A DNA stretch of 64,000 nt from positions 81,530,001 to 81,594,000 of the forward strand of contig CM060731.1 in the NCBI GenBank assembly GCA_030704615.1. The letters run 5' to 3'. The DNA comes from Takakia lepidozioides (lineage: Eukaryota; Plantae; Bryophyta). Both the position numbers and the translations under genes were made by a program. The notes under the pieces are model-generated. The model saw only the letters and a program-made list of their open reading frames with translations, was not told the origin of the DNA and did not search any database. Positions 18,851-42,180 of this stretch are shown one piece after another; the stretch's first letter is position 1, and each line of letters starts with the position of its first letter.

Positions 18851-18940
18851 ATGCCCCCGCCATCGGAGAAGATTCACAGGCTAGTTGATGAAATCTCCAG
18901 CCTCACTCTACTTGAAGTTTCGGATCTCACAACGCTGTTG
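18851..18940 (+). pseudogene. captured fragment of organellar ribosomal protein L7/L12 (bL12) N-terminal domain
   Basis: PPSEKIHRLVDEISSLTLLEVSDLTTLL. Confidence 0.8.
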
Positions 18941-19954
18941 AACTCAAATGAAATGGAGGGGAACAGCAGGCACATGGCCAGGGAACCTAGGAAACCATAT
19001 AGAAACTTAGGGAACCGGGAACCAGTTACCAGATATTTTGGGTGTAACTTTAAATTTTAAACTTGAAAACTTATTATAAAAAAAAAAAAAAAAAAACCCT
19101 TTGATCTAATTTAAATGATTTAGAGCCAAATTGGCTTGCAACAGTGAGCGGTAGCAGGACGAGGCAAGAACTGACTCATAGCAGGGAGCTCCCTTGCTCT
19201 GCAATGGGCCCCATCTTCTTTGCCTCCCGCTCTTTTCATGTGCCTGCTCACCTCCCTCTCAGTGCAGCATTCCTTCTAATGCCACCCGCAGTGCTCGCAA
19301 TTTCATGTTGCCACCAATACAGGGAAGTGCCACCAATCCCGAGCTTATTCTGTCTTCCTTGAAAAGCCTGTTGGCCTATCTCAATCTTCTCATGTACTTA
19401 GCTTTTCTATCACAGTACTTGCCAGTTCACCTCCATGGCTGTGACCCTGCTCTCAAACAGTATATAAACATACATAAACTGTGCATCACACAGGCAGTCC
19501 TAAGGCTCTGTATTCTCTACACCTTTTAGCCTGTGACCACCTTCTTGGCAACAATCCAGGCTCTAGGATCTAACCTGCAACATGAGTGTGCAAAAGAACC
19601 GTTGTGATGCACACTCATCCAAAGAGTTCTGCTCCAGCTCAATACTCCATGCCCATTTGCTCTCACTCCTTACGGGCCGTCAAGTGGTCTTGGATAGAAA
19701 ACTCCCAGCTATCAAGACTTTATGGAGTAATATGAAATGCGACAGTCACCAGTATGACTGTGTTGAGCGCACCGATACATTAAAACGCTTACTGAAATGC
19801 TGCTTTTCGCTTTTTTGGCAGCCTTCTTGGCCATTCGAGAACCTTTGTCTGCAAGAAGAATGGAAGCAAAACACATGTGTGTCTGCTCTTCACCCTCTCC
19901 AAGATCTGCCACATGAAAGCCTTGTTTTACCAGACCTGTGTAGGGAGGCTCTTG

Positions 19955-20147
19955 CAAGGCCTGCATCCCTCAAGACTTCATCTATTGCAACATCATCATT
20001 CCATGCCACCTCAGGAATCACTTTGTTAAAATGACGTTGAATCTTCGTGACGTTTCGCTCATCTTGATCTGTGAGCAACAAATTGAAAGCAACACCTTTG
20101 CGACCAAACCGCCCGCTTCGACCGATTCGGTGCAGATATGTCTCAGG
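19955..20147 (-). pseudogene. captured C-terminal fragment of a DEAD-box RNA helicase (DBP5/RH38-like)
   Basis: [24 protein letters not shown]...[15 protein letters not shown]...LRDAGL (motif VI plus C-terminus). Confidence 0.8.
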
Positions 20148-21206
20148 GAGCTCTGTTCCCGAAAGCTTGACTGAACGAGGGAAAGTGGTCCGGTGCAGAA
20201 TCTCAGCGACATCAGCATTCCTCAGAAGTTCGTCTCCTTCATTGTGACCGGAAGTCAAATGCGTTCACATTGGCGAAGGTAACTGGTGCCTTGAACTTCC
20301 AACCCTGCAGCAAATGGCCATTGCGAGAGACAGCAAACAATGCAGACTTGCTGCCCTGCAAATTGGAACTAACTTAAGCCGGGAGAGACCTAATATTGCA
20401 TGGAACGGAAGCCAGTCCCACTCATGCTGGCGGAATATCGCTGGTCACCAAATCCCAGCCAGCGCGGGCCCTTCGCCGGGAGAGAGCAGGAGTAGCTTCA
20501 GATGAAGAAAGCAGTGTCTCGTTATCCCAGATATGAGAGAAATGGCTAATGTTGGCCGCCTCCCATGGGCCCATCGCGCCATCGCGCAGGCAGACAGTTC
20601 AGTGGTCACTACAAGACTCCATCACCAAGACCTTGTGGCCAACTATCAAAGTCTCCAACCTCCACACCTCTTGTTTTTTTTTTTTTTAAACTCACGAGCA
20701 GAGACGACAACTAGATCTGCGCGCACAGCCCATGGCAACAGCAGGGGCCAGATGGACTCCTGCCCCAAGATGTATATTATAATAGTGCTAAAAAAACATT
20801 GTATCTAGCTTAGCATTAAAAACTAGGTAGCATGATCTCTCTCGAGTGATAAGAAAACTAGAAAAACACACTGTTTACACAAGAAAACAACATGAATCCA
20901 ACAGCATCACTCTTTAAGATAATAGTAGTTGAGCCAGGGGCACCCCAAGCTATGGGGACTCCACCCCACAACAACCTACACTCCCATCATGAGTACACTC
21001 AGATCTAAACGCATGCAGGAGTTCGGTCGCACAGGCTCAACTCGAGAGAGATGAGCTACGCGACTGCCGCTCTCGTGAAGATAAGGCCGTTCAGGTGTCA
21101 AACTAAACTTGACACCTGATTTAACACTTGACCTAAATCCAAGTGTTAAATAAAAATAACTAGCTTTATTCTAGTTCTTTTCACACTGTGCTTATTTAAC
21201 TTGACA

Positions 21207-22132
21207 AACTGGAAATGCCTGGGCCGGGACGTCTGTGCCTTGCACCATTCGAAATCCTGCTGTAGAAAGAGCATCCGCCTCATTCTGAGAGAGGTTGCAA
21301 CCCAGTGCAACATGCCAGACACCCGGAGGCTTCGGCATTCCCTGAATCCCGTACTTGGGCTTGCCAAATACACAGGTCATTATGTCGTGCCTACAGAACC
21401 AAAACGTCTGCGTTGTGGCGTGAGCAAATATGAGAGTCAAAAATCTGCCGCTGAAACAAGGTGCAGGTACAGCACCGTGTGGGTTCCTCCGAATCATCTC
21501 ACCACACCGTGCTCTCGTATCCACCCAGATGGCGCAACACTTCTCTCGAAATGCCGACAATGTCCTTGCAATTCTCCACTGTGACTCTGACACTCTTGTC
21601 TCCACAATGGGTATGTTGTACTGCGTTACTATATATGGCTCGTTATGTTCCTCGGGCATGTGTCATGTGCTCAAAGGAGATGGTGATCTTGAACGTGCAG
21701 GACTTGCAGTGCTCGACGAGACCTCATCGGGCAACATCACGGGACCACGAGGGAGCGTGCGAATATTCTTGTTAGCTCGCCATGAATCCTCTTCTCCGCC
21801 AGGTGCCTCGTCAAGTCTCCGTCTCACTGGACGGGTGTGAACATCTCCTTCCAAGTGTTGGCCTCTTCGAAGCAATGGCGTGTCCCGAGGGCCCTCTCGC
21901 AAGGCTGCTGCCCACTTCCGAGGATTCTTTGATCTGGAGGCAGTCCGCATCAGCATTTCCTGCCTGTCCGGCCCCAAGCCCCACTGTTTCCTTTCAAGAA
22001 CTCGTTGTACCTGCATTGCTGTATAATTGACCTCATAATGTCCTCCGTTGTGGCAGTGAGGATGTCCACTAGATGCGCCGCAGAGGAGACACGCCAGGAA
22101 GAATATACTGATTCGGCCATGTTTGTTGTCGG
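21207..22132 (-). pseudogene. MULE-like transposase, middle segment with catalytic-E region
   Basis: TTNMAESVYSSW matches the T-x-N-x-x-E-S motif. It joins 39920 (DTDM[P/S]|TTNMAES) and 13799 in frame after the insertions are excised. Confidence 0.8.
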
Positions 22133-23036
22133 TGTCAAATTAAATAAACCATTCTCAGATATAACCACAGGTTGACAAAAATCGTAGCAACATCTCAAGC
22201 CTCATGTTCTGCTCCACTTGGCACACATAGCCAGTCTAATTGCAGGCTCCCTGTGACCAAGCTATATTATAATAATGCTTAAAAACAAAAACTTAATATT
22301 AGCTCAGCACTAGAAAACTAGATAGAGGATCTCTCTCGAGTGATAAGAAAGGACTAAACTCAAATAACAAGAGAAACACAAAACACAACACCATCACTCT
22401 TTAAAATAGTAGTCAATCCAGGGGCACCCCAAGCTATGGGGACTCCACCCCACAACAATACTCAGGTTTTGAACGGTGAAGAAGCTCGGTCGTGCAGGCT
22501 CAACTCGAGAGAGATGAGCCGCACGACTGACGCTCTCGTGAAGATAAGACGGTTCAGGTGTCAAACTAAAATTGACACCTGACTTAACACTTGAACTAAA
22601 TCCAAGTGTTAAATACAAATAACTAGCTTTATTCTAGTTAGTTTCACGCTTGCGCTGGAATCGGACACCGTGCCGCCAAAGCGATCTCGCTGCCGGTCAT
22701 GCGTTGCGGTGTCGTGAACTCCTCGCTTTCTTACATCGATTTAGCTAAAGCCACGTTTCTTATGCCCATAAATGGCTGCATGCCTTCACATCGCAATAAA
22801 GAAAGAGGATAGACAGAAGAGCCGGACGATGCACCGGAGAGCGGTAGCCATGAGGCGGGCTGTGGTGCAAGCTGTTGCTTCCTGCATGAACGCAGGATTT
22901 TCCTCTCCGTGCCAGCAAGGTGATCAAGTGTGAGTAGGCTGTTCGTGCTTCTGCAGCAGGAGTTGGCCACAAGGCCATCCTCCCTTCCATTTGATGAGGG
23001 TGAGGTGGATGGAAGGAGGAGACTATAGCAAGTAGA

Positions 23037-23465
23037 CCATCAAGTGGTCAGTAAGTTGGTTGAGCCGAGTTTCCAGCTCCAGTTCCATTGCTGATAAGGT
23101 GATATGCGCCTCACTTGCCAACGCTATCTTCTCTTCTAGCTCCCTTGCCTTCATCTGACATTGCTCAAGACTTGTACGAAGCTCCAGTTGCTATTGCTGA
23201 AAGGAATCACGTTCAAGTTTATCATGCTGGGCTGACTCTGCCTGAGACTGCAAAGGTTGCCTTAGTGCAAAGTGGAGGCTTGCGATTCTACGTTCCAAAT
23301 CTGACCGGGCAACTTCCATGAAATTTCATCACCATTATCAAACTGGCTGTCCACGGCATCCAGATGCTGGTGCCGTTGCTTCCGTAATGAGCCAGCAGCT
23401 TGCTCGTCGATCTGTTGCAAAAGCTTCTCAGCCACTTTAAGTTTGGAGGAAAGCCATCCCGCCAT
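23037..23465 (-). pseudogene. captured, internally deleted fragments of golgin-84-family (GC2-like) gene
   Basis: MAGWLSSKLKVAEKLLQQIDEQAAGSL joined to the coiled-coil segment ...ELELETRLNQLTDHL. Confidence 0.75.
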
Positions 23466-23529
23466 CTTCCTTGTCTTCCTCAATCTGGTCTCATTGCTCG
23501 CGATGGATTTACAGCTATGCCAGATGACA

Positions 23530-23801
23530 TCCTTCTTTAGGTGTGATCGGTGAACTGAAGCTGAGGGCTGGTTCATCTTCTTAGTTTTGGTGGTGGCAAG
23601 CACAACTGATAGACCCTCACCAGCTGAGGCAACAGCCACTGTCTTCTTGTTGGCAAGCCCTGAATATTTGAACGTGTTCAAGTTATACAAATTGTTCGGC
23701 TCAGAGCTGAATGTCACAGATGCATTGCCATTGCCGTTCCTCGTCACCAAAAACTTGTTGCTGTTCTTTACCAACAACCAGATCAGGTCCGAAGACGCCA
23801 T
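23530..23801 (-). pseudogene. RPL28: captured uninterrupted 5' fragment of 60S ribosomal protein L28
   Basis: MASSDLIWLLVKNSNKFLV...FSSEPNNLYNLNTFKYSGLANKKTV. Confidence 0.9.
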
Positions 23802-23904
23802 CCTTCGACCCGAGGAGGGGATCCCGCTCCAACAAAATGGACGGCTGCAGCGAAATGCAATGAGCACGAAAGAGACATCCTTCTCACTAATGGAACAAGT
23901 CCTG

Positions 23905-24197
23905 GGGTGCGTTTGCTGGAGTTTCTGGCGACTATGCCATCGTCGTGTCTCACAACCCTGACAGCGGCACTACTCGCATTAAGTTGCCGTCTGGAGCAAA
24001 GAAGGTTGTACCAAGCGGATGCCGAGCAATGGTAGGGCAGGTTGTTGGAGGGGGCCAAACAAAGAAGCCTATGCTGAATGCAGGTAATGCGTATCACAAG
24101 TACAAGGTGAAGCGCAACAGCTGGCCTAAGGTGCGGGGTGTGGCCATGAACCCTGTTGAGCATCCCCACGGAGGTGGTAACCATCAGCACATTGGAG
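23905..24197 (+). pseudogene. RPL8: captured internal fragment of 60S ribosomal protein L8 (uL2)
   Basis: [13 protein letters not shown]...KLPSGAKK...[25 protein letters not shown]. Confidence 0.92.
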
Positions 24198-25057
24198 CCC
24201 GCCAGAAAGCCCGACTTGCACAGAGACGAGCAGGAGACTCCCGCTGCAACCTGCATTGAGACAGCCGCCATAGCTCCTAAAGCCAATCCTTCAGCTTTGT
24301 ACGCCCGCTCTTGCCGCCCTCTCAGACTGTCGAAGCCCTTTGCCTTGAGGGTAGGGGGTCGGGACACATGAGGGGCTGCCCCTGTGGTGGGGGCAGTGGC
24401 AGCGATAGGTACGGGGGGCTGAAGCACCCTTGAGTGCCCAAGGCACTCAAGGAGGCGGAGGTGCTCACTAGGTGGAGCCCTGCACACCGGGATGCGGTGG
24501 GGGTGGCTTCACAAAGGGGTGGTGGTAGCTTAGCGGGACTTAGTGAGGGTGGCATAGGACTTACCTTGGGGCGGAGACCTCATGGTGGGAGTCGTGGGGA
24601 GTCTTGGGACTCATCACGGTCCATAGGGGCCGTGGTGGGTGGGCCAAGACTCACCGTGACTCATCACCGGGAGTCGAGGGTTTTCGTGGTGGTTCGCCAT
24701 AAAATGGCATGGTTGTTTGTGAAACCCCCCGCGGACAGCTACAGAAGTATATTTAGGGAGTAGTAACCTCGAGAACGGTGCAAGCCCGTTGGTGACCAAA
24801 AACTAGTGAGTAAGCGAGCGAGCCGGAAAGCGACCAAAGAGTGGGGAGCTGTTCCAGACTGCCAACTACCAAAGGGAATTCCCGCTGGGCCCAAATCGGT
24901 GGAGGGTTCTTTGGGAGATCAAAGGGGGACCGTTATGCCCCGGTGAGCAGCCGAAGCTCCAAGTTGGCCCGGCGGCCATGTTGGGAGTTAGGCACACGCA
25001 TCAAAGCGAGTAACTATGACTTGAAGGGGAGCTTACCGAAGTGAGGTGCGCGACACT

Positions 25058-25069
25058 TGGTATCAGAGC
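25058..25069 (+). promoter_or_regulatory. primer-binding site, tRNA-iMet
   Basis: TGGTATCAGAGC two bases after the 5' LTR. Confidence 0.9.
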
Positions 25070-25110
25070 TTAGAGTTCAGTACGTGATCGTCCTTGGGAT
25101 TGGCCTCATC

Positions 25111-28100
25111 ATGGGGTCGGGCAAGCCAAAGCGAAAGCGGAACGGCCCAAAAGATGATGATCCCGGTGAGCCCGATGGGGGCGACGTGTCACCGAGGCGG
25201 CCGTTTGAGGAAGCGATGCATGTTTCCGAAAACGAGGCCGCTCAAGGGCGGGAGGAATCTGAGGAGTCGGAGCCCAAGGAATCCTTGAGAGCTCCGACCG
25301 ACCAACATATGCCTCCCATGCCGGCAGCCTTTTGGGAAGGGTTGTTGGCGCAGTTTGGCGGGACGTTGAAAGACGTGTTGAAGGCGGCTAATGCCACTTC
25401 CACTAAGGCAAAGTTTAAGGTGAAGCCTAAGGAACCCGGCACCTTCGAGGGTGTCCAAAATCGGAAGGCACTCAACACCTGGCTCCTGGAGCTAGAGCAG
25501 TACTTCCGGGCGGCCAAGTTGAGTGACGAGGATCGGGTGGAAGTGGCTCCCACCTATTTGAGGGGCTATGCTCAACAATGGTGGCAGAAACGCCTTCACG
25601 ACCGAGGTCCAAGCCCGGAAACCTTGAACTGGATGGGTTCAAGGAATTGATGAAGAGACAGTTTGTGCCCCTCAACGCGTCCTGGCTTGCCCGGGACAAG
25701 ATGAGGAATTTGAAGCAAACAGATGACATTCGGGGATATGTCCAGGCTTTCAATGAGCTTTTGCTCGAAGTCGCGGACATGGCAGAACTAGAAATGGTCT
25801 TCAACTTTGTGGCGGGACTGGCCCCATGGGCCAGGCGGAAGTTGGAGGAGAAGCCACCTAAGACTTTGAACGAGGCAATTGAGAGGGCTGAATGTTTCTC
25901 GGATGTCCCTAGGGGTGAAAGACAAGGCCGTACGGAGCTGAACCACAAGAAGACCCGGCGGGAAGGTGAAGAAGTGGGATAGGCCACGCGGCGACAATGG
26001 CACGTGGAAATCGAAGGGAGGGCCTTCACACGTCAAGACGGTACCCGGTGCTTCGAAAGGAAAAGCGGGTGGAGCGGCTTATGGCGGACAGAAGACCACC
26101 TTTGATGGAGTGTGTTTCAATTGCGGGGAGCTCGGGCACATGGCCAAGAAGTGCACAAAACCTCGACAATTGAACATGACTCGGGCAACCACGGAGCTGT
26201 CAGAAGATACCATCAGTCGCTTGGTGGAAGCGGTGGTCGCCACGACTTGCAACGTAGGCAACTATTCTTGTGAGTTGTATCAGGAAACTGGCGCCCTACG
26301 TAAAGGGAGTCAGTTATTGTTTGTGGATGGGATAATATCCGGAACTAATGTGTCGTTGTTGGTGGACACAGGAGGGTCGCACTCCTTCATGACGCCGGCG
26401 GCGGCGCAAAAGTTGGGACTCTCGACAAGTGACGTGGGGGCCTCTATTGAGGTGCATTCTGCCAAAAAAGAACCACAACTGGTGACAAGGTTGGCATTTG
26501 ACGTTCCTCTTCAACTGGGGAGTTGGGGATGACCTTTTTGAGCAAATCCGGAGCGGTCATAGATGGCCGCAAGGGAGTAGTCACACTGCCATGTGGGAAT
26601 GGTGGCGAGGTCTTACGAGTGTCAGAAACGCCCAAACCCGTGGGAGGGCGAATAAGCCTTCTGTCAGCAAGGGAGTGGGCCGTGGAGGAGGCACACGAGC
26701 CCCAGTTTTTGCTCTACATTAGAGAAGTGAAGGGGAAAGGCGATGGGGAGCCGAGCCCAGATTGGATCAAGGGGATTTTGGAGAAATACCAGGATGTGAT
26801 GCCGGAGGATTTACCAAGCGGTTTGCCACCGCGAAGAGGAGTTGACCACAAGATTGAGGTGATACCGGGATCAGAACCGCCTGCCAAGGCGCCCTACCGG
26901 TTGAGCCACAGAGAGTTGGTCGAGCTGAAGACTCAGCTCAAAGATCTAATGTCAAAGGGGTACATCCGGCCGAGTAAGTCACCTTACGGAGCCCCGGTGC
27001 TATTTGCAGATAAAAAGGATGGGACGCTGCGGATGTGTGTCGATTACAGGGCTCTGAATAAGGTGACTATCAAAAACCGGTACCCTTTGCCAAGGATCGA
27101 CGACCTCTTCGATCGGTTGGCAGGAGCGAAGTATTTCAACCGGATCGACTTGCGCTCCGGCTATCATCAAATTCGGGTGGCGGAAGGGAGAGGAGAAAGA
27201 CGCGTGCAGGACAAGGTATGGTTCATATGAGTTCTTGGTGATGCCTTTTGGGCTCACCAATGCACCAGCGACATTTAGCACGCTGATGAACAGCCTTTTT
27301 CAGGATGGTTAGATGACTTTTGTGATCGTGTACATCGACGACATCTTGGTGTACTCGAAAACGAAGGAGGAGCACTTGGAGCACCTGAAAAGGGTGTTCC
27401 AAAAATTGCGGGAAGGGAAGCTATACGCCAAAGCTTCAAAGTGCGAATTCGGGGTCACGAAAGTGGGTTCTTGGGGCATGTGATTACACAGGATGGGATC
27501 AAAATGGATGACAGAAAGGTGAGGGCGATCTTGGACTGGGAGCCTCCGACTTTGGTCCCGGGAGTGCGATCCTTCCTAGGACTCGCCTCCTATTACCGGA
27601 AGTATGTGAGAAATTTCGCCAAGATCGCGGGGCCGCTGTCGGACCTTCTGTGTAAATCCAAAGTCTGGGTATGGAACACCTTTTGTGGCCAAGCTTTTGC
27701 TGAATTGAAGCAGCGGATGGCGGAAGCTCCAGTCTTGAAAATCCCGGAGTTCGATCGTCCATTCGAGATTCATACGGATGCGTCGGACTTCGCGATTGGG
27801 GGTGTACTTATGCAAGATGGACGTCCAGTGGCTTACGAAAGTAAGAAACTAAATGAAGTGGAGCGACGGTGGCCAACGCACGAAAAAAAAGAGATGAAGG
27901 CGGTGGTGCATTGCCTTGAGCTTTGGCGCCACTATGTTGGTTCCAACCCAGTGAAGGTATTCACGGACAATGTTACGGTGAAGTATTTTGCCACGCAGCC
28001 CAAGTTGTCCCCAAAACAACTTAGGTGGCAAGATACTTTGGCAGTGTTTGACGTGGATATCCAGTACAAACCGGGACGTGACAATGTGGTGGCCGATGCT

Positions 28101-29560
28101 TTAAGTAGAAAGCAGCAGCTCATGTTGGTGTACAGGGGCGAGACGGCGCTCCAAAGGAAGATCCGGAAGGCTTTCCGGAAGGATGAGCTGGCGAAGTCTG
28201 TGATGCAAGACTTGAGGAGGGGGGTTAAATCGCAGTTTCCACTTGCAAAATGGACTGCTCCGGTATAAGCAAAAGCGTCTCTACGTGCCGAAGGGAGGGA
28301 TCAGAGATAGTCTCTTGAGAGAATGCCATGATAGCCCGCTTGCGGGCCACGGCGGAGCCAAGCGCACTGCGGCACTCTTGAAGAAAGAGTATTTCTGGCC
28401 CAAACTGAGGGAGGAGGCAGAGGAGTATGTCAAGACATGCACCACATGCAACAAAACCGGAGCGAGTACAAAAAGCAAGCGGGGCTGTTACAACCCTTGC
28501 CGATTCCAGAGGGGACTTGGGAAAGCGTCTCGATGGATTTCATGACTGCTATGTCGCTGTCAAAAGGATTCGATGCAATCATGGTGGTGGTGGTGGATAG
28601 GTTCAGTAAAATGGGCCATTTCATCCCACCAAGGAGACGGCAACGGCGCAGGAGGACAAGGCGACTTTACTTCGCCCACGTCTTAAAGCATCATGGAGTC
28701 CCGAAGGATATTGTCTCGGACCGCGATCCAAAGTTTACGAGTAAATTTTGGATGACACTTTGGAAGAAGATGGGGACGAGGCTGAAGATGAGCACCGCCT
28801 TCCGACCTACGACCGACGGCCAAACGGAAAGAGTGAATTCCGTAGTGAAGCAGATCTTGCGGAATTACGTGTCGGCAGACCAATCAGACTGGGTGGAACA
28901 CTTAGACGCGGTAGAGTTCTGTTATAATAACACAGAACACTCCGCAACGGGAGTTTCCCTTTCGTATTGGTCTATGGAAAAGCACCTCTGGTGCCGACAA
29001 GTTGGGCCGCCCAGGACGTTGAGAGGAAACCGGGTAGCGGCGGTACTGGAAGAACGTGAGCGTTTGTTGAAGCTCGCAAAGTACAACATTGCCAAAGCTA
29101 GGAAACCGTATGAAAGGCAGGCGAATCAGAAGCGGAGGGGAAGTGAAGTTTGAGGCAGGCACAGAGGTCTGGTTTGAACATCAAGAATTTCCGACTACCT
29201 CCGGAAGTGAGTCCAAAGTTCGTACCTCCGTATGCGGAACCCTTTCGCATCTGGAAGGTTATGAATGAGGATGTGTATGAATTGGAGCTGCGGCAAACAG
29301 CAAGGTGCATCCAGTATTCCACGTCTCCCTTTTGAAGCCTTACTTCAAAGATGAAGCGCGTCCGAATCGGCATCAAGTGTTGCGTCCGCCACCTGTGCTG
29401 TTGGATCATGAAAATGAACGTGAGTACGAGGTGGAGGCAGTACTTAAGTCAAGGAGGTTCAAGAACCGAGAAACGGAGTATCTCGTCAAATGGAAGGGCT
29501 ATCATCATGTGGAGGCATCTTGGGTGCGTGCCTCAGAAATGGAAACGCATCCGAGGCGGT
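25111..29560 (+). pseudogene. gag-pol: gag, CCHC knuckle, protease, RT, RNase H, integrase, chromodomain; multiple frameshifts
   Basis: CFNCGELGHMAKKC; LLVDTGG; [11 protein letters not shown]; YIDD (~27330); HTDASDFAIGGVL; SDRDPKFTS; TDGQTERVN; YEVEAVL...EYLVKWKGY...SWV. Confidence 0.92.
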
Positions 29561-32500
29561 TGCAGTTTTTGAAGGGCGACCTCAAAGCGGAAGAAGCGTT
29601 GATGGGACATCCCTTGGAGCATGGGGGAGGAAATGCATGCTTAGCCCGGCTTAGCTAGCTTAGGAATCCGATTGCAAAAACTGTATTGTACAAAAAATTT
29701 GTTATAAAGGAAATGGGTTCTAAATGTTGTGCGTCCTATTTTGTTTGGAATGGTGTGATGCATGGTGTGGTTGGCTAGTGTGTAGAATGCATGCTAGCTT
29801 ACAAAAGTGGGAGAGGTAAATTGGGTTAATCGTGTGTGTGTTTACGCAGTGCCGAAATCGGGTGACTCCCATCCAAGGGGCAAGGAAACATGCACCTTCT
29901 TTGGGAGTTCACGTGCTAGTGCGCACCTGGCGCGTGCGCGTACTATAACTACGCTACCGAGGCTATAACTGCGCTACCGAGGTGGTTGCCTTGTAGTAGG
30001 AAGCTACGTGCTTCCGTTCACGTACTATAATCGTGTAGCCTCGGGACGGGAAGTCATAGTGCGGCTTCGACGTGTTCCCGTACCTCAGGCCAGCATTCCA
30101 AGACGGACCCCAATTGTAATGATTGGGGCGCACGGTTGGTTCAAGGTTCTTCCTAGTCAAGGGGGTTCGAGGTGACCCTTGTGCAAGGTAATGCCAAGCG
30201 GCATCATGAGCGATCGCAAACAATGTTGTTGCAGTAAGGCGATTCGATCCTCGGGGAGGATCATTCCTTGGCCTTGAAGTAGGCCAAGAAGAGTGCACTG
30301 GGAGGAGCTTGAGAGGCTCCACCCCTGGCCGGGACTTGGAGGAAGTCGGCCGAACTAGCTAGTGGAGAGTAGAGTCAAGTGTAGGGTTTGGTTCTTGCCA
30401 TGGGACGCCATGGTACGGAAACAAACTCCTTGATGTGGGACGCCACAACTTGGATGTTCGTTTCTACAAAATGGACAAGTCGATGAGGACATCGACTCCC
30501 GTAGGGGGTGTGTGTCGTGGCCTTTGCCTTGAGGGGCAGGGGGTCGGGACACATGAGGGGCTGCCCCTGTGGTGGGGGCAGTGGCAGCGATAGGTACGGG
30601 GGGCTGAAGCACCCTTGAGTGCCCAAGGCACTCAAGGAGGTGGAGGTGCTCACTAGGTGGAGCCCCGCACACCGGGATGCGGTGGGGGGGGCTTCACAAA
30701 AGGGTGGTGGTAGCTTAGCGGGACTTAGGGGGGTGGCATAGGACTCACCTTGGGGCGGAGACCTCGTGGTGGGAGTCGTGGGGAGTCTTGGGACTCATCA
30801 CGGTCCATAGGGGCCGTGGTGGGTGGGCCAAGACTCACCGCAACTCATCACCGGGAGTCGAGGGTTTTCGTGGTGGTTCGCCATAAAATGGCATGGTTGT
30901 TTGTGAAACCCCCGCGGACAACTACAGAAGTATATATAGGGAGTAGTAACCCCGAGAACGGTGCAAGCCCGTTGGTGACCAAAACTAGTAAGTAAGCGAG
31001 CGAGCCCGAAAGCGACCAAAGAGTGGGGAGCTGTTCCGGACTGCCAACTACCAAAGGGAATTCCCGCTGGGCCCAAATCGGTGGAGGGTTCTTTGGGAGA
31101 TCAAAGGGGGACCGTTATGCCCCGGTGAGCAGCCGAAGCTCTAAGTTGGCCCGGCGGCCAGGTTGGGAGTTAGGCGCGCGCATCAAAGCGAGTAACTATG
31201 ACTTGAAGGGGAGCTTACCGAAGTGAGGTACGCGACACAGACGCTGATAAGCATATGTAAACTCCACCTTACACAAAGAGAAAGCATGACCCAGGTGGAG
31301 AAGTCCATTCATGTGAGGATAGGGGAAGTTTCCAAAGAGCTTTTCACCTTCCTTTGAATTTTTAAATTTGAAAGGATAGTTGATAGTTGCAGAAAGGGGA
31401 AATCTACGTATCTAGATCTGGTTTTAATTTTTTGGACTGTGTTAAAAATCTATGGAATTTTTTGAGTGTGAGTGTGCCATGAAAGATCCACAATTCTGTT
31501 TCTAGAACCTGTTGTGGTCTATATGAGAGACAAATCTGTGGATGTCCTCCTTGTATGGCTGGGGGAAATGAGGACGTAATTGAAGGACAAGTCTCTTCTC
31601 TTAGCCTGTGCACACAAGGGGACAAGATTTATGTTTCCCAAGGAACTCAGACTGATTTGAATGGAGAGCAGTTGGGCGAGTTGATTGCATACTGGGAGTC
31701 AGGCATTAGCAGTAGACAACAAACTGTTGTAGTTGGCGTTGAGGGCCTCAATATTACTTTGGACAGTCAGAACTCTGTTAGAGCCAGCAGTTCTACAGCT
31801 GTAGGTGAAATACCAAAGTGGGTGAAAGCTAGGCTTGGAACATAGCCAAAGACAGCCCCAGGGACCAAGGTGTTCAGCCACAAGGCCGTGGTGTATTGGA
31901 GTAGAGGAGCAGAAGCTACACAAGTTTGTGCAATCAGACATGGTTGCAGCCGGACACGCTCTGCACAAGACAAACACGAGCGGGGGTTCATTAGCAATGA
32001 CAAGTTTGTCCTGCTTGAAGGAGATGCAATCATTCGCAATGAGGACACCTGCAACCGTCTCCAAGCTTTCGAGTTGAGAGACTGTCAGACCCTACCTTTT
32101 TTTCTTTAGTGTTCAGTGAGGGAGGGGGGGTATTGCTTGTCTCTACCTGGTAGAAAGAGGAGGAGGGTTGGTTAGAGCGAGCTACTGTAGCTTGGGACAA
32201 GGTTTAGTGGCAGGTTTCTGGACATGATATACCTCCTACACCTTACATCATGCAAAGCGAGGCACTTTGAGAGAAGTCTGGCAGTTGATAGCATAGATCA
32301 GGATTAGATCTTGCTTGGTCGGGCTTCTATTCTTCCCTCCCTCTCTTTACTATTTTCATTACTTTGTACTTGTAGTTGCCAAAGCCTCTTTTGGTGGAGG
32401 CCAGTCAGTCCGGGGTTTTGGGCTGGGATATTCTGCAGTATCAGCATTGCAGATGGATTTTGGTGTGGGGGTGTTGATGTTTTGATTCTTGTGTTTGGAT

Positions 32501-32834
32501 CCCCCCCCAACACCTGCATGCTTACTGTGCGCCATGTTGGTTTTTGTGGGCGCTTGCTTTCATAGGATTAGGCCGGATTTGATCACCGGTCAATCCTAGA
32601 GTATGCTGTCATTGGTGAGGCTAGAGTGTGACCAGCAAGACCACCAGTGTTTCTTCTATGGTGAGACTGGGTTGATGACCAGCCAACCATAGGAGTTCTT
32701 GCGATGGATGCAGGTACAGGTGCCCTGAGCCACTGGGATATATGACCCTTAAACTGCACAGGTGCCCACCGTGTCACTATTAGAATTAGTACTAGAGCCT
32801 CATAGTGTCACGTGGGGGAGGTGCACATTGTGAG

Positions 32835-34330
32835 TGTCATCACGAGTTACCCAAGGGTTTTGAGGGGAGTATGGCTACAGGCAATAATAGTGAGAGTGGG
32901 TTCACAAGACGAGGTATTCGGTTCAGACCACCTTCACCTCCACCCTAAACTAGTGCAGAATCAGACACAGACTCGGAGGCTTCATCAACAGGGTGTGCAG
33001 TTTCATTCGCCATTGTTGTGGGACGACATGGAGGAGATGTATGGAGCTACCAAGGGGCCTCGTAGGTACTCTGGAGTTGTGGGCACAATTGAGCTGGATG
33101 ACTTTATCCAGGAGTTCGACAGCTGGTGTGATTTGCAGCAGATGCGCAATCCACAGCTATTCACCCCATTCATGGCGTGGAAGGGACTGTTCTAGCATTT
33201 GGAAGGCCCGCCTATGGGACGATTACCACGAGTTCAGGCGAGGACATGAAGCAGAGATTGAGGAGTGGAGGATGTATTGGTCACCTGACTACGTCTCCAT
33301 TACTCGAGGCACGACGCGACCAGTAGCTGCATCAGCACCAATATCTCCCACTGCCAGCACTAGTAGTGGAACAAGTAGTGCCGGTACTTTTGCAGGTGGT
33401 ACTAGTTCAAAAGGTGCTACTACTCCTCCTGCCACGACTACAACACATGTGCCTACATTCAACCCGGTGGTGGAGTTCTTCCAGGAGTTGCGGAGGAACT
33501 ATCAAGGTGTACGGACAGAGAAGCTGCGAAGTTTGTAAGACTTCCAGCGCAAACCCAGTGAGAGCCTGCGAGAGGCGTACACTCGTATGAGGCGCTTGAT
33601 AAGTGTGACCAAGGGGGTTACTGAAGCTCAGGCAATCCAGTTCTGGTATGGAATTTTGGACAAGGAGCTCAGGAGAAGGGTGCGGGATGCAACCCTGTTA
33701 CAAGCAGCCCAACCCACATTAGCAGATGTGTTTCTGCTGGCTGAGCGGATTGAGTCAACATGGTGGAGGAACGAGTTGTTACCATTGGATTTGGCAAAGA
33801 CATGCTGCACGAGGCGCAGCTGCCAGCCCACAGGCACAAGGGACTGCCCAACAGCGTGGTCAGGGGGGCAAGGTTTCCCAACCCAAATTTCATGGAGCTT
33901 ACATGGGACCTCAGGTGCAGAGGCAGGCAGTAGCATCTTTTGCAAGCCAACAGCAACCAGGGGTGATATGTTGGACATGTGGAGGACCCCATGTCAAGAG
34001 AGATTTTCCCAGAGAGTGGCAAAAGGCCGGCACAAGCACAGCCTACACAGTTGCAGTGTGGCATTGTGGCAATATGGGCATGGAGATGCCCAGTGTTTAT
34101 GACTTGCATCCTGAGTTGCGCCCAGGCCAGTTCCAAGGGAACAATGGTGGCCGGGGGCGAGGGGGACCAGCCCAGAGAGGACGAGGTGGCCGGGCACGAG
34201 GTGCAGGCCAAGGGCAAGCTCAACATGGCCAAGGACGCGAAGGTTAGGGTATTGACCAAGGCATGGCCAACCGGCTTCAGCAGCTAGAGCAGAGGCTCGC
34301 TGCCATGGCTACAGCTCAAGTGGTACCGGC
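32835..34330 (+). pseudogene. gag with two CCHC-like zinc knuckles, disrupted
   Basis: FQRKPSESLREAYTRM (retrotrans_gag-like); CWTCGGPH; CGHCG-like...GHGDAQC; RGG-rich tail. Confidence 0.75.
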
Positions 34331-34759
34331 TCCCAGGCGGAATGGTCCACCTCCTGCTCCTGAGGGAGGAGATATGGGAGGCATGGGATTCATGTGCGGA
34401 GCAGCACTACCACTAGAGCAGGTGGAGTCTGCTGCAGCCGTTGCCAACACTAGCCGCCTTTACAGCTGCAGTTAGTTGGCCTGGAGAGTTGGTGGAAGGC
34501 AATGCCCATGCAGAGGATGTGCCACCTTCAGCAGAGCAAAATGACATGCATGGTACGGTGGAGTTGCCTGCCATGGTTGCTCACACTCCATTGTGGGGTA
34601 CGAGCAAGGATTTGCAGCAGGCTGCTGATGGACGGGTGCAACAAGCCTGGGTAGAGGCCTTCGTACTGTCAGGAGAAGAAAAGAGTGCGGTGATTGCACC
34701 AGGACCGCCTCAGTTGTCGCCATTGGATACCACACTTCTTGTGTGGCAGTGCCCGGATG

Positions 34760-35710
34760 AAGGCATATGCCTTCTAGACTTGTTTGGCGAGATCAGCACT
34801 GGATTGGCTGCAGTGCTGCAGGCAGGTGTACGAGTTCGACGTTACCTGTATGTGGAGAGGGATGAGACTACACGACGCGTCTCACTATGCCATGTTGCTC
34901 AGTTGGTACAGCAGTACCCTGATTTGTTACCAGTGTCTGCAGTTCGTGGATACCAACAAGCCTTGCCAGCAGACATTTCGTTGCTGGGGGGCATTTGGAG
35001 CAACATGGTTGGGATCCATTGATCTGGTAGTGGCAGGTTGGCCCTGCCAAGGCATTCATCAGCGGGCATGGCAATGGATTGCGAGACTCGAGGACGGGTC
35101 TGTTTTGGGAGATGGTGCGGGTTTTGCGCCATTTGCAGCTTCATCAAGCTATATCTCCAGCATACATCTTAGAGAATGTGCCACTGATGGGCGATTCTCG
35201 GGCCAGGGTGATGGCCAGTGTGCATCAAGTCCGGTCATGGCTTGGGTCAGCAGTGTTGCTGGATGCAGCTGCAGTGGGGTCACGGGCTCATCGTCCACGG
35301 CTATGGTGGACTAACTTGATGCCACCTGCACTGCTCAAGCGTGCATTTGATGGGGTGCAGCGGCTAGCACACCTCACAGTGGATAGCATTTGGACACAGA
35401 AAGGCAGTCTCAAACGGTGAGATACGATGACCGTTCACCTTTGGCAGTGGTCAACAGGGTGGGTCAACCGCGAGCAGCATTACCTACACTGCTCAGCTTC
35501 CCAGGATCCCATGCTTTTCGGGATGGTGGACCTGGCCTCTTGTGGGATAGCCAATTGCAACAATTAGTGGAGCCCAATGCTGACGAGCGCGGGCGATGGG
35601 TTTTTACCACTGGTACCACGGTGGTGCCATCTCTTTCTGAGGCATCACGTCGTCAGGTTTTGGGGCAAGCAATGGATCTCAATTGTTTGACCTGGATTAT
35701 CAGCTTGGCT
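34760..35710 (+). pseudogene. C5-cytosine DNA methyltransferase domain (DNMT3-like) inside the retroelement polyprotein, frameshifted
   Basis: Motif I LLDLFGEISTG, II YVERD, IV DLVVAGWPCQG, VI YILENV, VIII AHRPRLWWTNL and X RQVLGQAMD, in the canonical order. Confidence 0.9.
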
Positions 35711-36129
35711 ATGGCTGAACAACGCAGAGTACACTTCCCTTCATGGTCTCCCTGCCTACCGAGACGGTACAGGCAACAAGTGGGGGCGAGCAGGTGAGGA
35801 CACGCGTGCAGGCCGCATCCATGGCACACGTGGGAGGTGCTCGAGGTTCAGAATGAGGTTGGCAGCCAAGGCAGCAGTGATGGATCAGGTTGGGGATTTT
35901 TCTCGGTTGAGGAGGTCTCAAGGATGGGGATGATGGGGGGGCAGGGTGAGACATTGTCACTGATAGAGGAGGCAGTGGTCATTGCTCAAGAGGTTGCAGC
36001 ATAGCAACCACGGGACGCGTCTTCTACCTCTAAGCCTGCTGGACTCAAGGTTGCAGTCACGGAGGACAACTGGGAACCTGATGTTGGACCTATAGTCACC
36101 GGAGGAGAGAGACGACGTATACGGCGGTT

Positions 36130-38990
36130 CTTGAGGGCTTACGGAACTGCTTTGCCTTCAGTTTGAAGGACTTAGGAGCACTGAAGGGTCAAGAGATTCA
36201 GATTGAATTGGTACTGACACGCCAATCTTTCGGAGACCCTATAGATACAGTGACATGGAGAGGTCCTTGATTCAGATGAGAACTCAGGACCTTTGGGAGG
36301 CTGGTTTGGTGGAGCTATCTGGGGGAGAGTATGCTTCAGCCACAGTGATGCCAGCCAAGAAGGATGTTTATGGCAATTGGACGGAGAGACGTATGTGCGG
36401 TGATTACCGGCCTGTAAATCGTCAAACCAAGTCCGATAGGTATGCCATGCCGACACCAGAGGAGATCTTTGATGCCATTGGGCATGCCAAGGTCTTTAGT
36501 ACTTTGGATTTACAATCCGAATATCACCAATTGCCGATCAAGGAGGCGGATAAGTAGAAGACGGCATTCTGGGGGATCAATGAGCACGGGAAGGATTGCC
36601 TATACCAGTGGCGGTTCTTACCATTTGGGCTTAAGAACGCTCCTGCAGAGTTTCAGAGAGTCATGGACAGGATTCTAGCAGGGGTGGAGTTTGCTCGGTG
36701 CTACATAGATGACATCATCATCTTTAGTGCTATGGTGGAGGAGCATGAGAGACACCTTCAGGTGATATTTGAGCGCTTGAGGGCGCACGGATTGAAGTTA
36801 CATCCGGGGAAGTGCAAGTTTTTCCACAACCAGATTGAGTATCTGGGTCCATGATATATCCTGGAGGATTGGGGTACAACAGACTAAGGTAGAGTCCATT
36901 GCACAGATTCCACGCCCCACGATTGAGCCGAGTTTGAGCTTTCATGGGGTTAGCAAACTATTATAGACGGTTTGTTAAGGGATTTAGTGTCATTGCAAAG
37001 GCTTAACCAAAGCTGCCCAAGTGGACCACAATAAGTGGCAGTGGGAAGATGAGCAAGAACAAGCTTTTCAAGAGCTCAGGCGAGGTTGACTCGGCGTCCA
37101 TCTTGAGACGACCTATCAGGGGGCGTCCTTTTCAGCTGCATACGGATTGGAGCATGCTGGGGCTTGGAGCGGTGCTCACACAGGTGGATGATGAGGGAAG
37201 AGAGTTCGTAGTGGCTTATGCTAGCTGCTCGAACAATGCTGCCGAGTCTAAGTATAGCTCATATGAGGGAGAATGCTTAGCTGCAGTGTGGGGTGGGTGG
37301 CACACTTCAGGTGCTATCTATACGACAATCTCTTCACCCTTGTCACAGATCACCAAACCACTCAAGTGGTTGATGGAGTCAGACAAGCTTACGGGGAAGC
37401 TTGCACGGTGGGCACTCATCCTCCAAGAATATGACTTTCAGTTATGCATCGACCAGGTTTGGTCAATCGCAATGCAGATGGGTTGAGTCGCAATCCATGC
37501 CACGAGGCCAACAGGATGACACTAGAGCTCGGTGGCATGGTGAGACGGACGAGGAGATGGTGCCCGGATGGCATGCATCTGCATTTCTGTGTATATTGGC
37601 AGTGGAAGGCCAGGTTGGACCTACAACAGGGATGACTGTAGATCAAGTGTCTGAGAACCCTGAGGCCAGCAATGAGCAAGGTGGCGCCAAAGATATACAT
37701 GAGGATTTAGTTGTGTTGGGACTACCTCCGCACTGGAGACACTGCAGCCACTGTGACTGCCAAGGAGAGGGATCGGATCCTACAACGAGCCAAGAGGTTC
37801 AAGTGGGAGGGGACACACCTGCTCCGAGTGGGGGAGGATGGTCGAGTGAGGGTTGTGCCTCACCCAACACAGCGGGCATGGTTAGTGCGGCATGCCCATG
37901 AGGAGTTGGGGCATTTTGGGGTGCGACGCACTCATAGTCTACTGCAGGGGCAGTATTGGTGCGTGGTATGCACACAGAGGTGCAACAAATTTGTGGCTAG
38001 GTGCATGGTGTGACAGGGTGCGTGCTTCATTCAACGCCCCTACTCCACAATTGCACCCTCTTCCGATCATGGGATTGGGCTACAGGTGGAGTCTTGACTT
38101 CGCAGGGGCGTTGCCACTGACCATGCGTCACAAAAGTACGTTTGGTTGATGGTGGAGCACTTCTCCAAAGTGGATCGAGTTGGTTCCGTTGCCTGATAAG
38201 GCTAGTGAGGGGAGTGCGTATGCATTCTTGGGATTGTGTACTTAGCCGCTTTGGTGCTCCAGCTGAGGTACTCACGGACCAAGGGAGAGAGTTCTTGGGG
38301 GAGTTTCAGGCTTTGTGTGACAAGGCCTTGATAGACCACCGCACCACTTCTCGGGATCATCCTGAGGCCGATGGCTTGGCAGAGAGGGTTGTTCAGATAG
38401 TGAAGAGGGATTTGCGCAAGTATGGCTTGCAGAAGGGACACCTAGGAGATTGAGACCTTCAGTTACCTTGGTTAGCCATGGGCTACAGGTTCAGCAAGCA
38501 AGCATCACTTGCCTCCTTCTCACCATACTTTCTTCTCTTTGGCCGAGAGCCGGATTTGCCTGCATCCATTCATAGAGAAGCTGCTACAGTTCTCAACCTT
38601 GACGATCCGGACATGTGGGCACGTGCATGTGATCAGCGTGCAGAGTTGTTCAAGAAAGTCATGCCCATGGCTTTCGAGAACCTTGCCATTGCACAACATC
38701 GTGATACGTTGAGGTATGCTACCATACATGGTGGGGGCTATCGTCCTGGGGTTCAGAGATTTAACCCTGGTGACTATGTTTATCTGCAGCAGACTGCTCC
38801 TACAACCTTGGATGTGACTACAGGACGTACTATTTTGAGGGTTCGAGAGGTGTTGCCCTCAAGAGTCCTAATCTTGGAGGGTCGGGATGGCATGATTTGG
38901 AAGGACCATGTGCGTAATTGCGCGCCATGTCACCTTCCAAATGTTGATGGAAGGGTTGACCCAAACCTGGCAGTGGTACCTGCAAGTTTG
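36130..38990 (+). pseudogene. RT, RNase H and integrase (Ty3/gypsy order), disrupted
   Basis: RRMCGDYRPVN; FSTLDL; PFGLKNAP; CYIDD (~36700); LHTDWS..GLGAVL; HEELGHFG; VLTDQGREF; ADGLAERVV. Confidence 0.92.
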
Positions 38991-38992
38991 AG

Positions 38993-39137
38993 GTGCATGT
39001 TGTGTGGGTCTGCTAGAGGGGCAGCCACCATGCTGGTGTGTGATCGATGCTCTAGAGGCTGGCATATGGGATGTTTGACTCCACCTCTTGAGATGGTTCA
39101 TGATGGGGATTGGTTATGTCCGCATTGCATTGGATAG
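38993..39137 (+). other. PHD finger at integrase C-terminus
   Basis: CMLCGSARGAATMLVCDRCSRGWHMGCLTPPLEMVHDGDWLCPHC is a C4HC3 pattern. Confidence 0.92.
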
Positions 39138-39919
39138 TGGGAGTGGATACAACCATGGAAGGCTAACAAGAAATGCAAGGCCAAGCTACTAGGAGACCTT
39201 GAACACACGAGATCCTGGCTCAAGTTCACAGATTGCAAGACGGCGACTAACGATGGGGCTACTCTTGTACCCGGCCTCTTGGTCTATAGAGTTTGAGTAC
39301 AATAGGGACAGTGATAGAGGACTTAGTACGGCTGTGGCTATTACATCTTGTAGCTATCTGGAGTTAGAGGGACCTATCCACCAGCTAGGGGGCGATTGTG
39401 GCAGACTACTTTATTGTGCATATATGCGTGGTGTGGTTTGGACAACGATGTAGTTGTGTAGCGATATGTATGTGCACGACAGCTGTCAAGTTAAATAAAC
39501 ACAGTGTGAAACTAACTAGAATAAAGCTAGTTATTTATATTTAACACTTGGATTTAGTTCAAGTGTTAAGTCAGGTGTCAAGTTTAGTTTGACACCTGAA
39601 CCGTCTTATCTTCACGAGAGCGTCAGTCGTGCGGCTCATATCTCTCGAGTTGAGCCTGCACGACCGAGCTCCTTCACCGTTCAGAACCTGAGTGTGCTTA
39701 TGAAGGGAGGATAGGTTGTTGTGGGGTGGAGTCCCCATAGCTTGGGGTGCCCCTGGCTTGACTAATATTTTAAAGAGTGATGGTGTTGTGTTTTGTGTTT
39801 CTCTTGTTATTTGAGTTTAGTCCTTTCTTATCATTGTGGCAGACTACTTTATTGTGCATATATGCGTGGTGTGGTTTGGACAGCGATGTAGTTGTGTAGC
39901 GATATGTATGCGCACGACA

Positions 39920-42180
39920 TCGACATGTCGGTGTCGGAGTCGAGACACATTTCCTGCACATGCACATGTTGAGGTTACAAACAAATTACAAATAATGAGT
40001 AGCATAATATTCAACGAGACGCGAATTCGTCCAACTCACCTCCCGCATATAGTCGCCGAACTGGAGGAAACGATAATGCCACCATGCTAGCCAACTGACC
40101 ATTGCTCCCTCGTCTGATTTCTTTACAGCACCTGACGTTGTCCACCAAGCCCGTATACATGCAAACTGTGTCTCTGCATCATCCAAGGTGGGAGCATGCT
40201 TCCACGCAAGACACATGGAATGGTGCTCATCTATGAAATCTGGCGCCACAAGCCTGGTTGTGTACTGCGACAAGCTCTGTAGAAAATGGAACCCACAAGA
40301 TCTCTCCTTGCCTTTCATGGGAACATTGGGGTCTTCCCTGTACACCCTTCGGATGGCAGCCCAATTTGCTTGTGCGTTGTCCGCCATGAAACCTCGGAAA
40401 TTGGGAAGGGCAATCCTGCCCTGGCTATCTGTTTCGTTTATTGTTTCCCTGCCAAAGAAGCATCTCCGATTGGTGTGTCCTCTCCTTTCATTTCACAAAT
40501 AGCATTGCATTAAGCATCCTACAGTGGGTGGTCGTAGACATTGCACCCATTGTCACCCACCACTGGTGATTTGTAAGTTCGCGTTGATATGGTCGATACA
40601 TGTGATACCCAACACGTGTTTGTACAAGAGTCCTTAACTACTCGTCATCCGGACATTGGAATCAGGCCATTCGACGGCACCGCTCAGAGTTCGCCTTGTC
40701 CCACACGCGGTACATTTTGAATACGAAACAACGATCTGCCTCAGTTCCTTGTCCTGACAACCTACTTCCTTGAATGTAGTCATAGCTTCACATCGTCGCT
40801 CGCTTCACCTCCAGAGGTGGAATGCATATCCGATGCCCGCTCGCCAATTCGCTGTTTGCAGGAGACAATATGGTTTCGACATGCGCTGAACCACAGACGG
40901 TGGGACCTGACTCCATCACCAGGCAGCCACTCCATTTCCCTTCTCACTCGAGAGGAACTCTTCTTGCTCTTCCATCAGTCCTTCTAGGCTGGCCTCATGG
41001 CTATCTTTGTATTGGTCGGCCTGCAGCTGGAGCGAGGGGGGTTTGGGCCACGCCACGTCGTCAACGCACCGCCTCCGTGCCACGAGCTGCACTGCTGTGG
41101 GGGCATCCCTCCATCCCGCGAGTTCTCCCCTCGCCAATGCATTGCGTTGGTGCTACGCTTGCGGAAAACGCACGTGTTTGCAAGCGCGGGCATGGGCAGG
41201 AAACAGTGCAACACATAGGCAACGTTCCTTGGCCCCATTACAAACAGACATCCGACAATGTGGGTGGTTCGTTAGTGCAATGCCCGAACAACTTGAAATG
41301 TGTGGAGTTTTGGTGACCTTGTGCTCCTGAGTCTGTTGAGTCAAATGGTGTGAATTTTGCTGTGCCTGTCTTCATACCGTTCCTCGTTTCCTGTGACCTC
41401 TGGTTTGTAAGTGGAAGCGTTGGGAGGAAACACCTGTGCAACGCTGCCCCCGCACAACAACGTAGCGCACCCGCACACATCGAGCATCTTCATTCTGGTG
41501 GTTTGGTGACTCAACCAAGGATAACCGTCATGTTTCCTATCCATATCTGTCAACATTCCGACGCCCTGGAATAGTCCGTTCGAGAAGGAACTCAAAGAAG
41601 ATATTACCGTCGACGTCTGCGGGAAGGCATGTAACGGATTTTAATTGCAACTTGCTGTAGTCCAGCCCAGCCAGCTCGAGCGTTGTCCTCCATGTGAAGC
41701 CCTCGCAGAATTTCAAGAATGGATCGAATTGCCGAGCTCGTGTTGGGAATATGACTCCCTCGTCCGCTGATGTCCATTGAGGACTTGCCTGATCTCCAGG
41801 ATGATCTCGGAACTTCCATGACCCTCGTCTGAGTCGGACAGGTTTGAACAACCCGGTTCTCGCTCATTCTTCATTGATGGGGTCGGCTCTGGATTTACTT
41901 CGTTGCGGACTTCTCTCTTTGAGGTACCCAGTCTCTGATTCGCGGATTGTTTCCGTAAAGGCGCCAGGATAGAAGGCATTTGGCGGGCAAATGAAGTCCC
42001 CACAGCCCTGTATATGACGCTGTCCAATGGTGGAACTCGCCATTCCCTGCCGTCGCCGAAATCATCGTGGAGCACAACAATACTTTTGACTACAACTCCG
42101 TTTGAATCCTTCCTTTCCTCCTCCAAAAATACCGACCCCGGTTTCAGGCGGTATCGAACGCAGAGATATTTCTCCATCAC
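39920..42180 (-). pseudogene. MULE-like transposase, N-terminal and DDE core segment, frameshifted, with an intron near 39955-40043
   Basis: FRGFMADNAQANWAAIRRVY (second catalytic D) and ERSCGFHFLQS (CxxH motif of Mutator transposases); GT..AG intron before EMCLDSDTDM. Confidence 0.75.

Follow-up and report, generated by a model that had tools for sequence, protein, structure and literature searches.

Two related retrotransposons in the window, the 64,000-nucleotide stretch of Takakia lepidozioides DNA analyzed here, begin and end on the two halves of a short palindrome that lies inside their LTR. Their architecture suggests that the integrase cuts this LTR-internal palindrome in cDNA whose natural ends have been joined to each other, probably into a circle. 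The core of this reading, that the internal palindrome is cut and that the reverse-transcription ends are joined separately, appears very likely from the sequences, and cleavage by the integrase is well supported by them. A circle, with joining before the cut, is the somewhat favored order of events.

Both window elements end on the halves of an internal palindrome

Self-BLAST of the window revealed two related elements in opposite orientation, both with the order B…A-gc-B-A, TGTC at the start and GACA at the end. Copy 2 (22133..39919, plus strand) is frameshifted and carries a nested chromovirus; its extent is supported by a target site duplication (TSD, TCGG/TCGA) and by empty-site contigs. 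It opens with B, whose TGTC starts at 22133 behind the left duplication TCGG (22129..22132, plus), and its GACA end at 39919 is followed by the right duplication TCGA (39920..39923, plus). Its 3' part consists of A1 (87 bp, 39395..39481, plus) ending in GACA, a GC pair (39482-39483) that is missing from the element ends, the 3' B (350 bp, 39484..39833, plus) and A2 (39833..39919, plus), which overlaps the end of B by one A and whose GACA forms the right end of the element. Only the first 17 nt of the 5' B, including the TGTC start, are intact (22133..22149, plus); the following sequence, ~22150-22650, is inverted, with the remainder of this B at 22341..22650 on the minus strand. This inversion of ~500 bp splits the 5' B and the primer site and could be real or an assembly error.

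Copy 1 (13800..21206, minus strand) starts with TGTC at 21206, ends with GACA at 13800 and is flanked by AGTT on both sides. Its 5' B with the TGTC start covers 20847..21206 (minus), and its 3' block (13800..14329, minus) comprises A1 (14241-14329), the gc pair, B (13888-14238) and A2 (13800-13888). An internal deletion with its break at 16441/16442 (minus) removed the gag C-terminus, the methyltransferase (DNMT) and the reverse transcriptase (RT). A SWIM zinc-finger ORF (weak match; 13199-13819, minus) lies directly at the right end of copy 1, which appears to have inserted into it.

The A|B junction of copy 2, GACAGCTGTC, is a perfect 10-bp palindrome at 39478-39487 (GACA-GC-TGTC) that extends no further and is the putative integrase site. 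Its counterpart in copy 1 reads GATAGCTGTC on the element's own strand (14235-14244) and differs from the palindrome by one substitution. Both had been located at these positions in a preliminary description of the window, which also held that the two elements begin at the TGTC half and finish at the GACA half; all four ends fit this account.

The span of copy 2 was confirmed by uninterrupted target-repeat contigs that connect its left and right flanks (loose ends before 39924). Exactly behind 39919, contigs pass from the element into unlike flanks (39 contigs in X1 and 29 in X4, flank agreement 0.35-0.36), X1 and X4 being the host's own runs from one sample that is possibly the same source as the window. 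This pile-up was used for the 3' end at 39919, and evidence on 5' ends was drawn from the window copies and metagenome loci.

Perfect 10-bp palindromes are frequent in the window (76 per 64 kb, 1.2 per kb), which rules out rarity per se as the signal; the signal is therefore the placement, with all four element ends on the halves of the palindrome. A function of the palindrome as a single-strand hairpin was likewise ruled out (z = +1.1, -0.5 and +0.8).

The chromovirus nested in copy 2 (24328-31237, plus) has the order gag-PR-RT-RH-IN-chromodomain, paired LTRs of ~730 bp and a 5-bp TSD, CAGAC. Its LTRs also start with TGTC and end with GACA, which is a generic att motif, and the nested chromovirus serves as a built-in control in this respect. 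A further stretch (1443-1997) matches its LTR at 88% in inverted orientation and is possibly a solo or partial LTR. Elsewhere in the window, two adjacent strong hairpins are found in the 3' B of copy 2 (39541-39599, z = -8.3), the second of which repeats the TGTCAAG end motif, and tandem repeat arrays, partly inverted, occupy 43410-45030, 48871-49377 and 51932-53960 with ~96-bp, 146-bp and irregular units.

The elements encode Ty3/Gypsy proteins and a Dnmt3-type methyltransferase

Copy 2 harbors, all on the plus strand, fragments of a frameshifted gag (32954..34247; the copy 1 counterpart matches Retrotrans_gag), of a DNMT3-like C5 cytosine methyltransferase (34417..35797; PF00145, E 5e-4) and of RT and RNase H (RH) (36207..37486), followed by an integrase (IN) zinc finger and DDE core with D(34)E spacing (37711..38453) and a PHD finger at the integrase C-terminus (38994..39128; E 2e-10). 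An intact relative, L013 (976-8229), has two ORFs, gag-protease-DNMT and then RT-RH-IN-PHD. Its methyltransferase is recognized with E 2e-13 and has DNMT3A/B/C as best PDB matches, its RT is nearest to Ty3 RT, and its integrase matches Ty3 and foamy virus integrase best. The D-D(34)E spacing is common to L013 and the window copy and is one residue shorter than in Ty3; combined with the 4-bp TSDs, it indicates DDE chemistry.

The gag-PR-RT-RH-IN order with a Ty3-like RT, as in Ty3/Gypsy LTR retrotransposons, is present, as is a Dnmt3-type methyltransferase inside a Gypsy polyprotein. An ordinary LTR arrangement, in which integration ends coincide with the outer ends of two complete direct LTRs, was found in neither window copy and in none of the complete loci. 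The elements are Ty3/Gypsy by their proteins and a variant by their structure. Named relatives occur in Calypogeia, Marchantia and Sphagnum, with up to 79% identity over long matches, which points to a seed-free plant as the probable host, and no match named Klebsormidium was present among the matches listed (120; 62; 10 clusters).

Tyrosine-recombinase elements typically have this layout and frameshifts abound in the window, so that a recombinase, an assembly error or a chance rearrangement might be considered as its origin. However, no tyrosine recombinase matched in 52 window ORFs (searched out of 87 of at least 90 aa in 13.5-40.2 kb, plus flank) or in the two ORFs of L013, the TSDs are 4 bp long, and the same layout recurs in separate assemblies and in unrelated families. 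As an explanation of the layout this origin is refuted, and overall it is extremely improbable.

Several features of coding and leader sequences were also observed. A single stop separates gag-PR-DNMT from the in-frame RT-RH-IN-PHD in L013, which suggests read-through, and the contig shows the order A-B-primer site, probably a collapsed assembly. Locus L075 (4860-11405, 53% GC) has another order, RT-RH-DNMT-IN-PHD, and two unannotated long ORFs of 1163 and 794 aa; its termini were not found. The 5' leaders are long, differ between copies and hold host-gene fragments: that of copy 2 has matches to ribosomal L28e and L2_C (23265-24256), and that of copy 1 contains a DEAD-box-helicase-like stretch (19893-20264), recognized by eye and without a Pfam match.

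A and B together form the copied LTR

In every family a G-rich tract precedes A1, and A begins with an A right behind the tract; in copy 2 the core of this polypurine tract (PPT) is the PPT-like AGGGGGCG (39387..39394, plus). The primer-binding site of the window elements comprises the 12 nt after the 5' B and is the exact complement of a 12-mer at B position ~155. It is located at 20835-20846 in copy 1 and, inverted together with B, at 22329..22340 (minus) in copy 2, where its counterpart in the 3' B lies at 39638-39649. Three metagenome families show the same relation, with 13-16 complementary nt at B position ~160-165, and a TATA-like motif ~25 nt upstream. Since the primer site complements B, it is a self-primer and not a tRNA site; Tf1-type self-priming was noted for some plant clades in the part of PMC6317226 considered here. 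A PPT before A1 and a self-primer after the 5' B define A+B as the copied LTR, as the preliminary description had concluded for the window. The start (ATTG, AGTTG or ATAC) and the end of A+B vary between families, and the internal TGTCA/GACA is conserved.

One observation counts against this model. Standard LTR copying predicts equal B copies, but those of copy 1 show 14 differences over the 195 positions behind the primer site and a single one over the 155 preceding it, with no difference between its A copies. In copy 2, both B ends match. Separate inheritance of the two U5 copies was dropped, as a test pooled over 10 copies was not significant (p=0.19).

Internal-palindrome ends are general across families

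To follow the feature beyond the window, a metagenome scan was evaluated, in which the best 80 of 534 confirmed loci were sorted; the contigs stem from short-read assemblies and may be chimeric or collapsed. A was followed by B in 38 of the 80 loci, 24 ended in a single A, one had a deleted B-A, and 17 were cut or interrupted. With duplicate insertions left out (L014, L018, L031, L058, L063, L068, L071 and L079), 31 A-then-B and 21 single-A loci of these best 80 remained. L029 and L077 were also left out (deletion through the palindrome or the B start), the palindrome of L029 having been lost by deletion between short repeats, and L033 was omitted from the junction count, its spacer being 2 nt in another alignment.

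Four further families were distinguished: three with A and B unlike each other and unlike the window, and L013. The motif ACA-NN-TGTCA is kept in all of them, and the spacer measured 2 nt in 30 of 30 placed junctions among the best 80 of 534 loci. It reads GC in 14 of these, AC in 9, AT in 3, GT in 2 and AA in 2, and is GC or a C-to-T derivative in 28 of the 30. Complete B…A-B-A metagenome copies carry a 4-bp TSD that is exact in 7/10, has one mismatch in 2/10 and is lacking in 1/10; complete B…A loci have a TSD in 2/4 cases. In total, 3/14 complete loci are without TSD, namely L045 and two B…A copies. A TSD of the form NCGN, the target preference of the plant non-chromovirus clade Phygy, was found for copy 2 only, among 14 TSD-bearing or complete copies. 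L061 retains its TSD although its A2 is 15 nt short, ending at an internal repeat.

Copies with normal LTR ends were not seen (0), and all complete copies examined had internal-palindrome ends. The feature is genuine and general. The preliminary description had named ends lying off the junction or an unconserved palindrome as observations against its proposal; the ends of the complete copies lie inside the LTR, and the spacer length was constant in all 30 placed junctions.

The B|A joint varies among sister copies

In family 3, the B|A joint falls into 6 length classes in 13 distinct copies, the most of 43 alignment windows, a joint-window count that is inflated by an 18-nt subfamily duplication; windows over the palindrome showed no length variation. 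On a tree built without the joint, the classes were unclustered (5 rows, 5 changes; 4 rows, 4 changes), the tree being weak with 2/10 branches well supported, and the best-supported trio (L042, L045 and L073) has three different joints. The commonest joint is a 1-2 nt overlap, and the others are blunt, have an extra base or are deleted; in L052, B is joined at ~76 nt to A via microhomology. A single-nucleotide spacer, written as B-t-A in the preliminary description, has to be replaced by this 1-2 nt overlap, which is found across families with A right after the G-rich tract. Variability of the joint is clear in family 3 only, with 1 variant in 5 in family 1 and a joint no more variable than elsewhere in family 2.

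Within each copy, A1 and A2 carry common subfamily marks, which indicates that A2 is recopied in each cycle. The variation among sister copies is what rejoining of the cDNA ends in every cycle should leave, and the B|A joint has the appearance of such a newly made junction.

Alternatively, the transcript might read through B into A2, with the joint copied from RNA by template switching and the layout inherited, as in PAT and Ngaro. The layout is indeed identical to the A1-B1-A2-B2 order of tyrosine-recombinase elements as given in the consulted parts of PMC4157794 and PMC6681497, the R-U5 divergence between the B copies of copy 1 fits separate inheritance, and joints are mostly uniform in the window and in family 1. 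Yet joints of sister copies differ and the joint class has no tree signal, the joint lies exactly where PPT and self-primer would end a normal cDNA, and the B ends of copy 2 agree with each other. We regard such copying as rather improbable, and joining of cDNA ends in each cycle remains the preferred reading.

Only the left palindrome appears to be used

A closed two-LTR circle has two equivalent palindromes, and cutting at the second one yields B-A-B…A. Among 13 elements with both regions visible, none was B-A-B…A and all 13 were B…A-B(-A) (p=2.4e-4 against 50:50). Visible 5' ends start with B on the flank in 18/18 cases (16 distinct loci and the 2 window copies). L064, in which GC precedes B, was considered as a B-A-B…A copy and ruled out: 8 nt before its B were unaligned in BLAST, and there is no A upstream.

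An unbiased cut at one or the other palindrome of a free, symmetric two-LTR circle gives the observed product exactly by its geometry, and the B…A copies exist. This model is nevertheless highly improbable, since about half of the elements would be B-A-B…A and none of the 13 is, and since all 18 visible 5' ends lead with B. Both products had been predicted in the preliminary description; B…A was found, with 24/80 loci ending in a single A (best 80 of 534), and B-A-B…A failed to appear. Of its model, the palindrome ends, the loss of the 2-nt spacer and the fresh joint are supported, but not the symmetric choice between two palindromes.

The zero-to-13 ratio implies that the left end used by the integrase invariably comes from the left LTR. 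On the circle model, this calls for an extra step in which the integrase is committed to the left palindrome. From the arrangement of the copies we infer that commitment would precede end joining, while the cDNA is nascent or still linear, and that the cut would come last.

B…A copies did not differ in age from A-B-A copies (mean distance, GC and CpG; family 3, 15 versus 9 copies, p=0.55; family 1, 6 versus 6, p=0.39). An origin of B…A copies as aged recombination products was rejected on this basis; recombination or assembly collapse is still compatible.

The same bias bears on a linear alternative, in which linear cDNA is cut at the left palindrome, both cut ends are inserted and the break that remains between the B end and the A stub is subsequently sealed by host repair. 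If sealed by end joining, the break would result in B…A-B-A, and if sealed by single-strand annealing between A1 and A2, in B…A, so that the genomic products equal those of a circle with a committed integrase. The natural asymmetry of linear DNA fits the ratio of 0 to 13, and such repair accounts for variable joints and deletion joints (L052, L058/L060) as well as for the frequent B…A copies, whose age does not exceed that of A-B-A copies. On the other hand, a chromosome break would be left at every insertion, a preference for the left palindrome would still be required, and no observation favors this route over a circle with pre-bound integrase. Linear cutting with repair after insertion is considered unlikely. 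Integration from a circle, as proposed earlier, stands as likely, but the inserted copies do not set it apart from a cut in linear cDNA that is repaired after insertion.

Proposed integration pathway

All steps of the proposed pathway are read from inserted copies. Transcription would start inside the 5' B, and the RNA would serve as its own primer at the site behind B, in the manner of Tf1. Reverse transcription would then proceed as for an ordinary LTR, with the plus strand primed at the PPT, and produce linear A-gc-B…A-gc-B, the ends of which would carry no conserved att motif. As the variation of the junction suggests, the free B and A ends may be joined by microhomology or by non-homologous end joining. 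Integrase, pre-committed to the palindrome of the left LTR, would nick after CA on both strands, and this double nick would create CA-3' ends with a 2-nt GC overhang, the GC spacer being lost on insertion. Strand transfer with a 4-bp stagger would yield B…A-gc-B-A, the product seen in inserted copies. B…A copies could arise from one-LTR circles or from use of both palindromes.

Implications

In the textbook view, LTR elements and retroviruses integrate the ends of linear cDNA, and two-LTR circles are mostly dead ends; whether circles can be true precursors has been debated on the basis of work on foamy virus and HIV. We see about an even chance that an entire Ty3/Gypsy lineage of streptophytes has given up its reverse-transcription ends for obligate integration from an end-joined circle opened at an inherited internal palindrome. 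If true, this would be a DDE route to a split-direct-repeat architecture otherwise tied to tyrosine recombinases, and the element would depend on host end joining to transpose. The pathway offers a concrete way to obtain split direct repeats without a tyrosine recombinase, and the question of circular precursors can now be put to the test in a lineage that has annotated relatives in Marchantia. A speculative idea with very little probability is that the Dnmt3 encoded by the element marks one palindrome and thereby determines the choice of the cut.

LTR finders are likely to call B…B the LTR pair or to miss the elements, and bryophyte genome annotations therefore probably misrepresent a widespread family that carries a methyltransferase.

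Comparison with known systems

The closest described element is KnitGypsy-Dnmt3 of Klebsormidium nitens, for which the legend of Fig. 4c in de Mendoza et al. (2018, PMC5890265) gives DIRS-type A-coding-B-A-B repeats with Gypsy domains. Compared by description only, it shares with the window elements the Gypsy domains, a Dnmt3-type methyltransferase in the polyprotein and the DIRS-like repeat order; the elements analyzed here widen this kind to relatives in liverworts and mosses and carry a PHD finger. In the portions covered, the text of PMC5890265 gives no ends, TSD, palindrome, primer or mechanism for it and the supplementary text mentions no palindrome, TSD or integrase, a preprint by the same group (2026) refers to Gypsy-DNMT3 of streptophytes for its methyltransferase only, and PMC6338049 and PMC12885004 contain nothing on structure. 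For Gypsy-7a_cRei, the portion covered of bioRxiv 2022.06.16.496473 reports a PHD finger and 'LTR subparts', which according to the legend are near-complete paired LTRs. The palindrome, the 2-nt loss, the variable joint and the bias are undescribed in the literature covered, with subscription papers, Repbase reports, theses and figures lying outside it. The layout is thus known in outline from the 2018 legend, and the mechanism is apparently undescribed.

Split direct repeats are known from PAT, Ngaro and VIPER, and a circular intermediate was proposed for the DIRS group (consulted parts of PMC4157794, PMC6681497 and PMC7192593). The window elements have the same A1…B1-A2-B2 order but differ in their DDE integrase, 4-bp TSD, PPT, self-primer and Ty3-like RT and in having no recombinase. 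With Tf1/Sushi and Tcn1, as far as described in the part of PMC6317226 covered, they share a primer site that complements the element's own LTR near the presumed RNA start; those elements have ordinary LTRs, whereas the window elements have a split LTR and no chromodomain.

Circle-junction insertion is also the route of IS3- and IS30-type elements. With IS3 and IS30 the window elements share a DDE enzyme that would act on abutted ends with a short spacer, but the insertion sequences have no RNA step and belong to another enzyme family, whereas RT is present here. The analogy to IS3/IS30 drawn in the preliminary description is loose: the IS junction is made by the transposase, in the IS3 pathway via a figure-eight (PMC3219604, part consulted), whereas here the cut palindrome would be inherited via RNA, the ligated joint lies elsewhere, and the integrase is Ty3/foamy-like. 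Foamy virus integrase cleaves both strands after CA in the palindrome of the two-LTR junction, so that the cut ends have a 2-nt overhang, and 2 nt are lost on integration (PMC1180852), and two-LTR circles of HIV-1 can feed integration (PMC4372172), according to the parts of both articles covered. A retroviral-type integrase and a palindrome cut after CA, with the 2-nt loss of foamy virus, are thus common features on the proposed pathway, and foamy virus integrase is in our analysis the closer chemical precedent than IS3/IS30. In foamy virus and HIV-1, however, the palindrome is formed where the two ends are ligated to each other, proviruses have normal LTRs and this route is an auxiliary one, whereas in the window elements the palindrome is internal and inherited.
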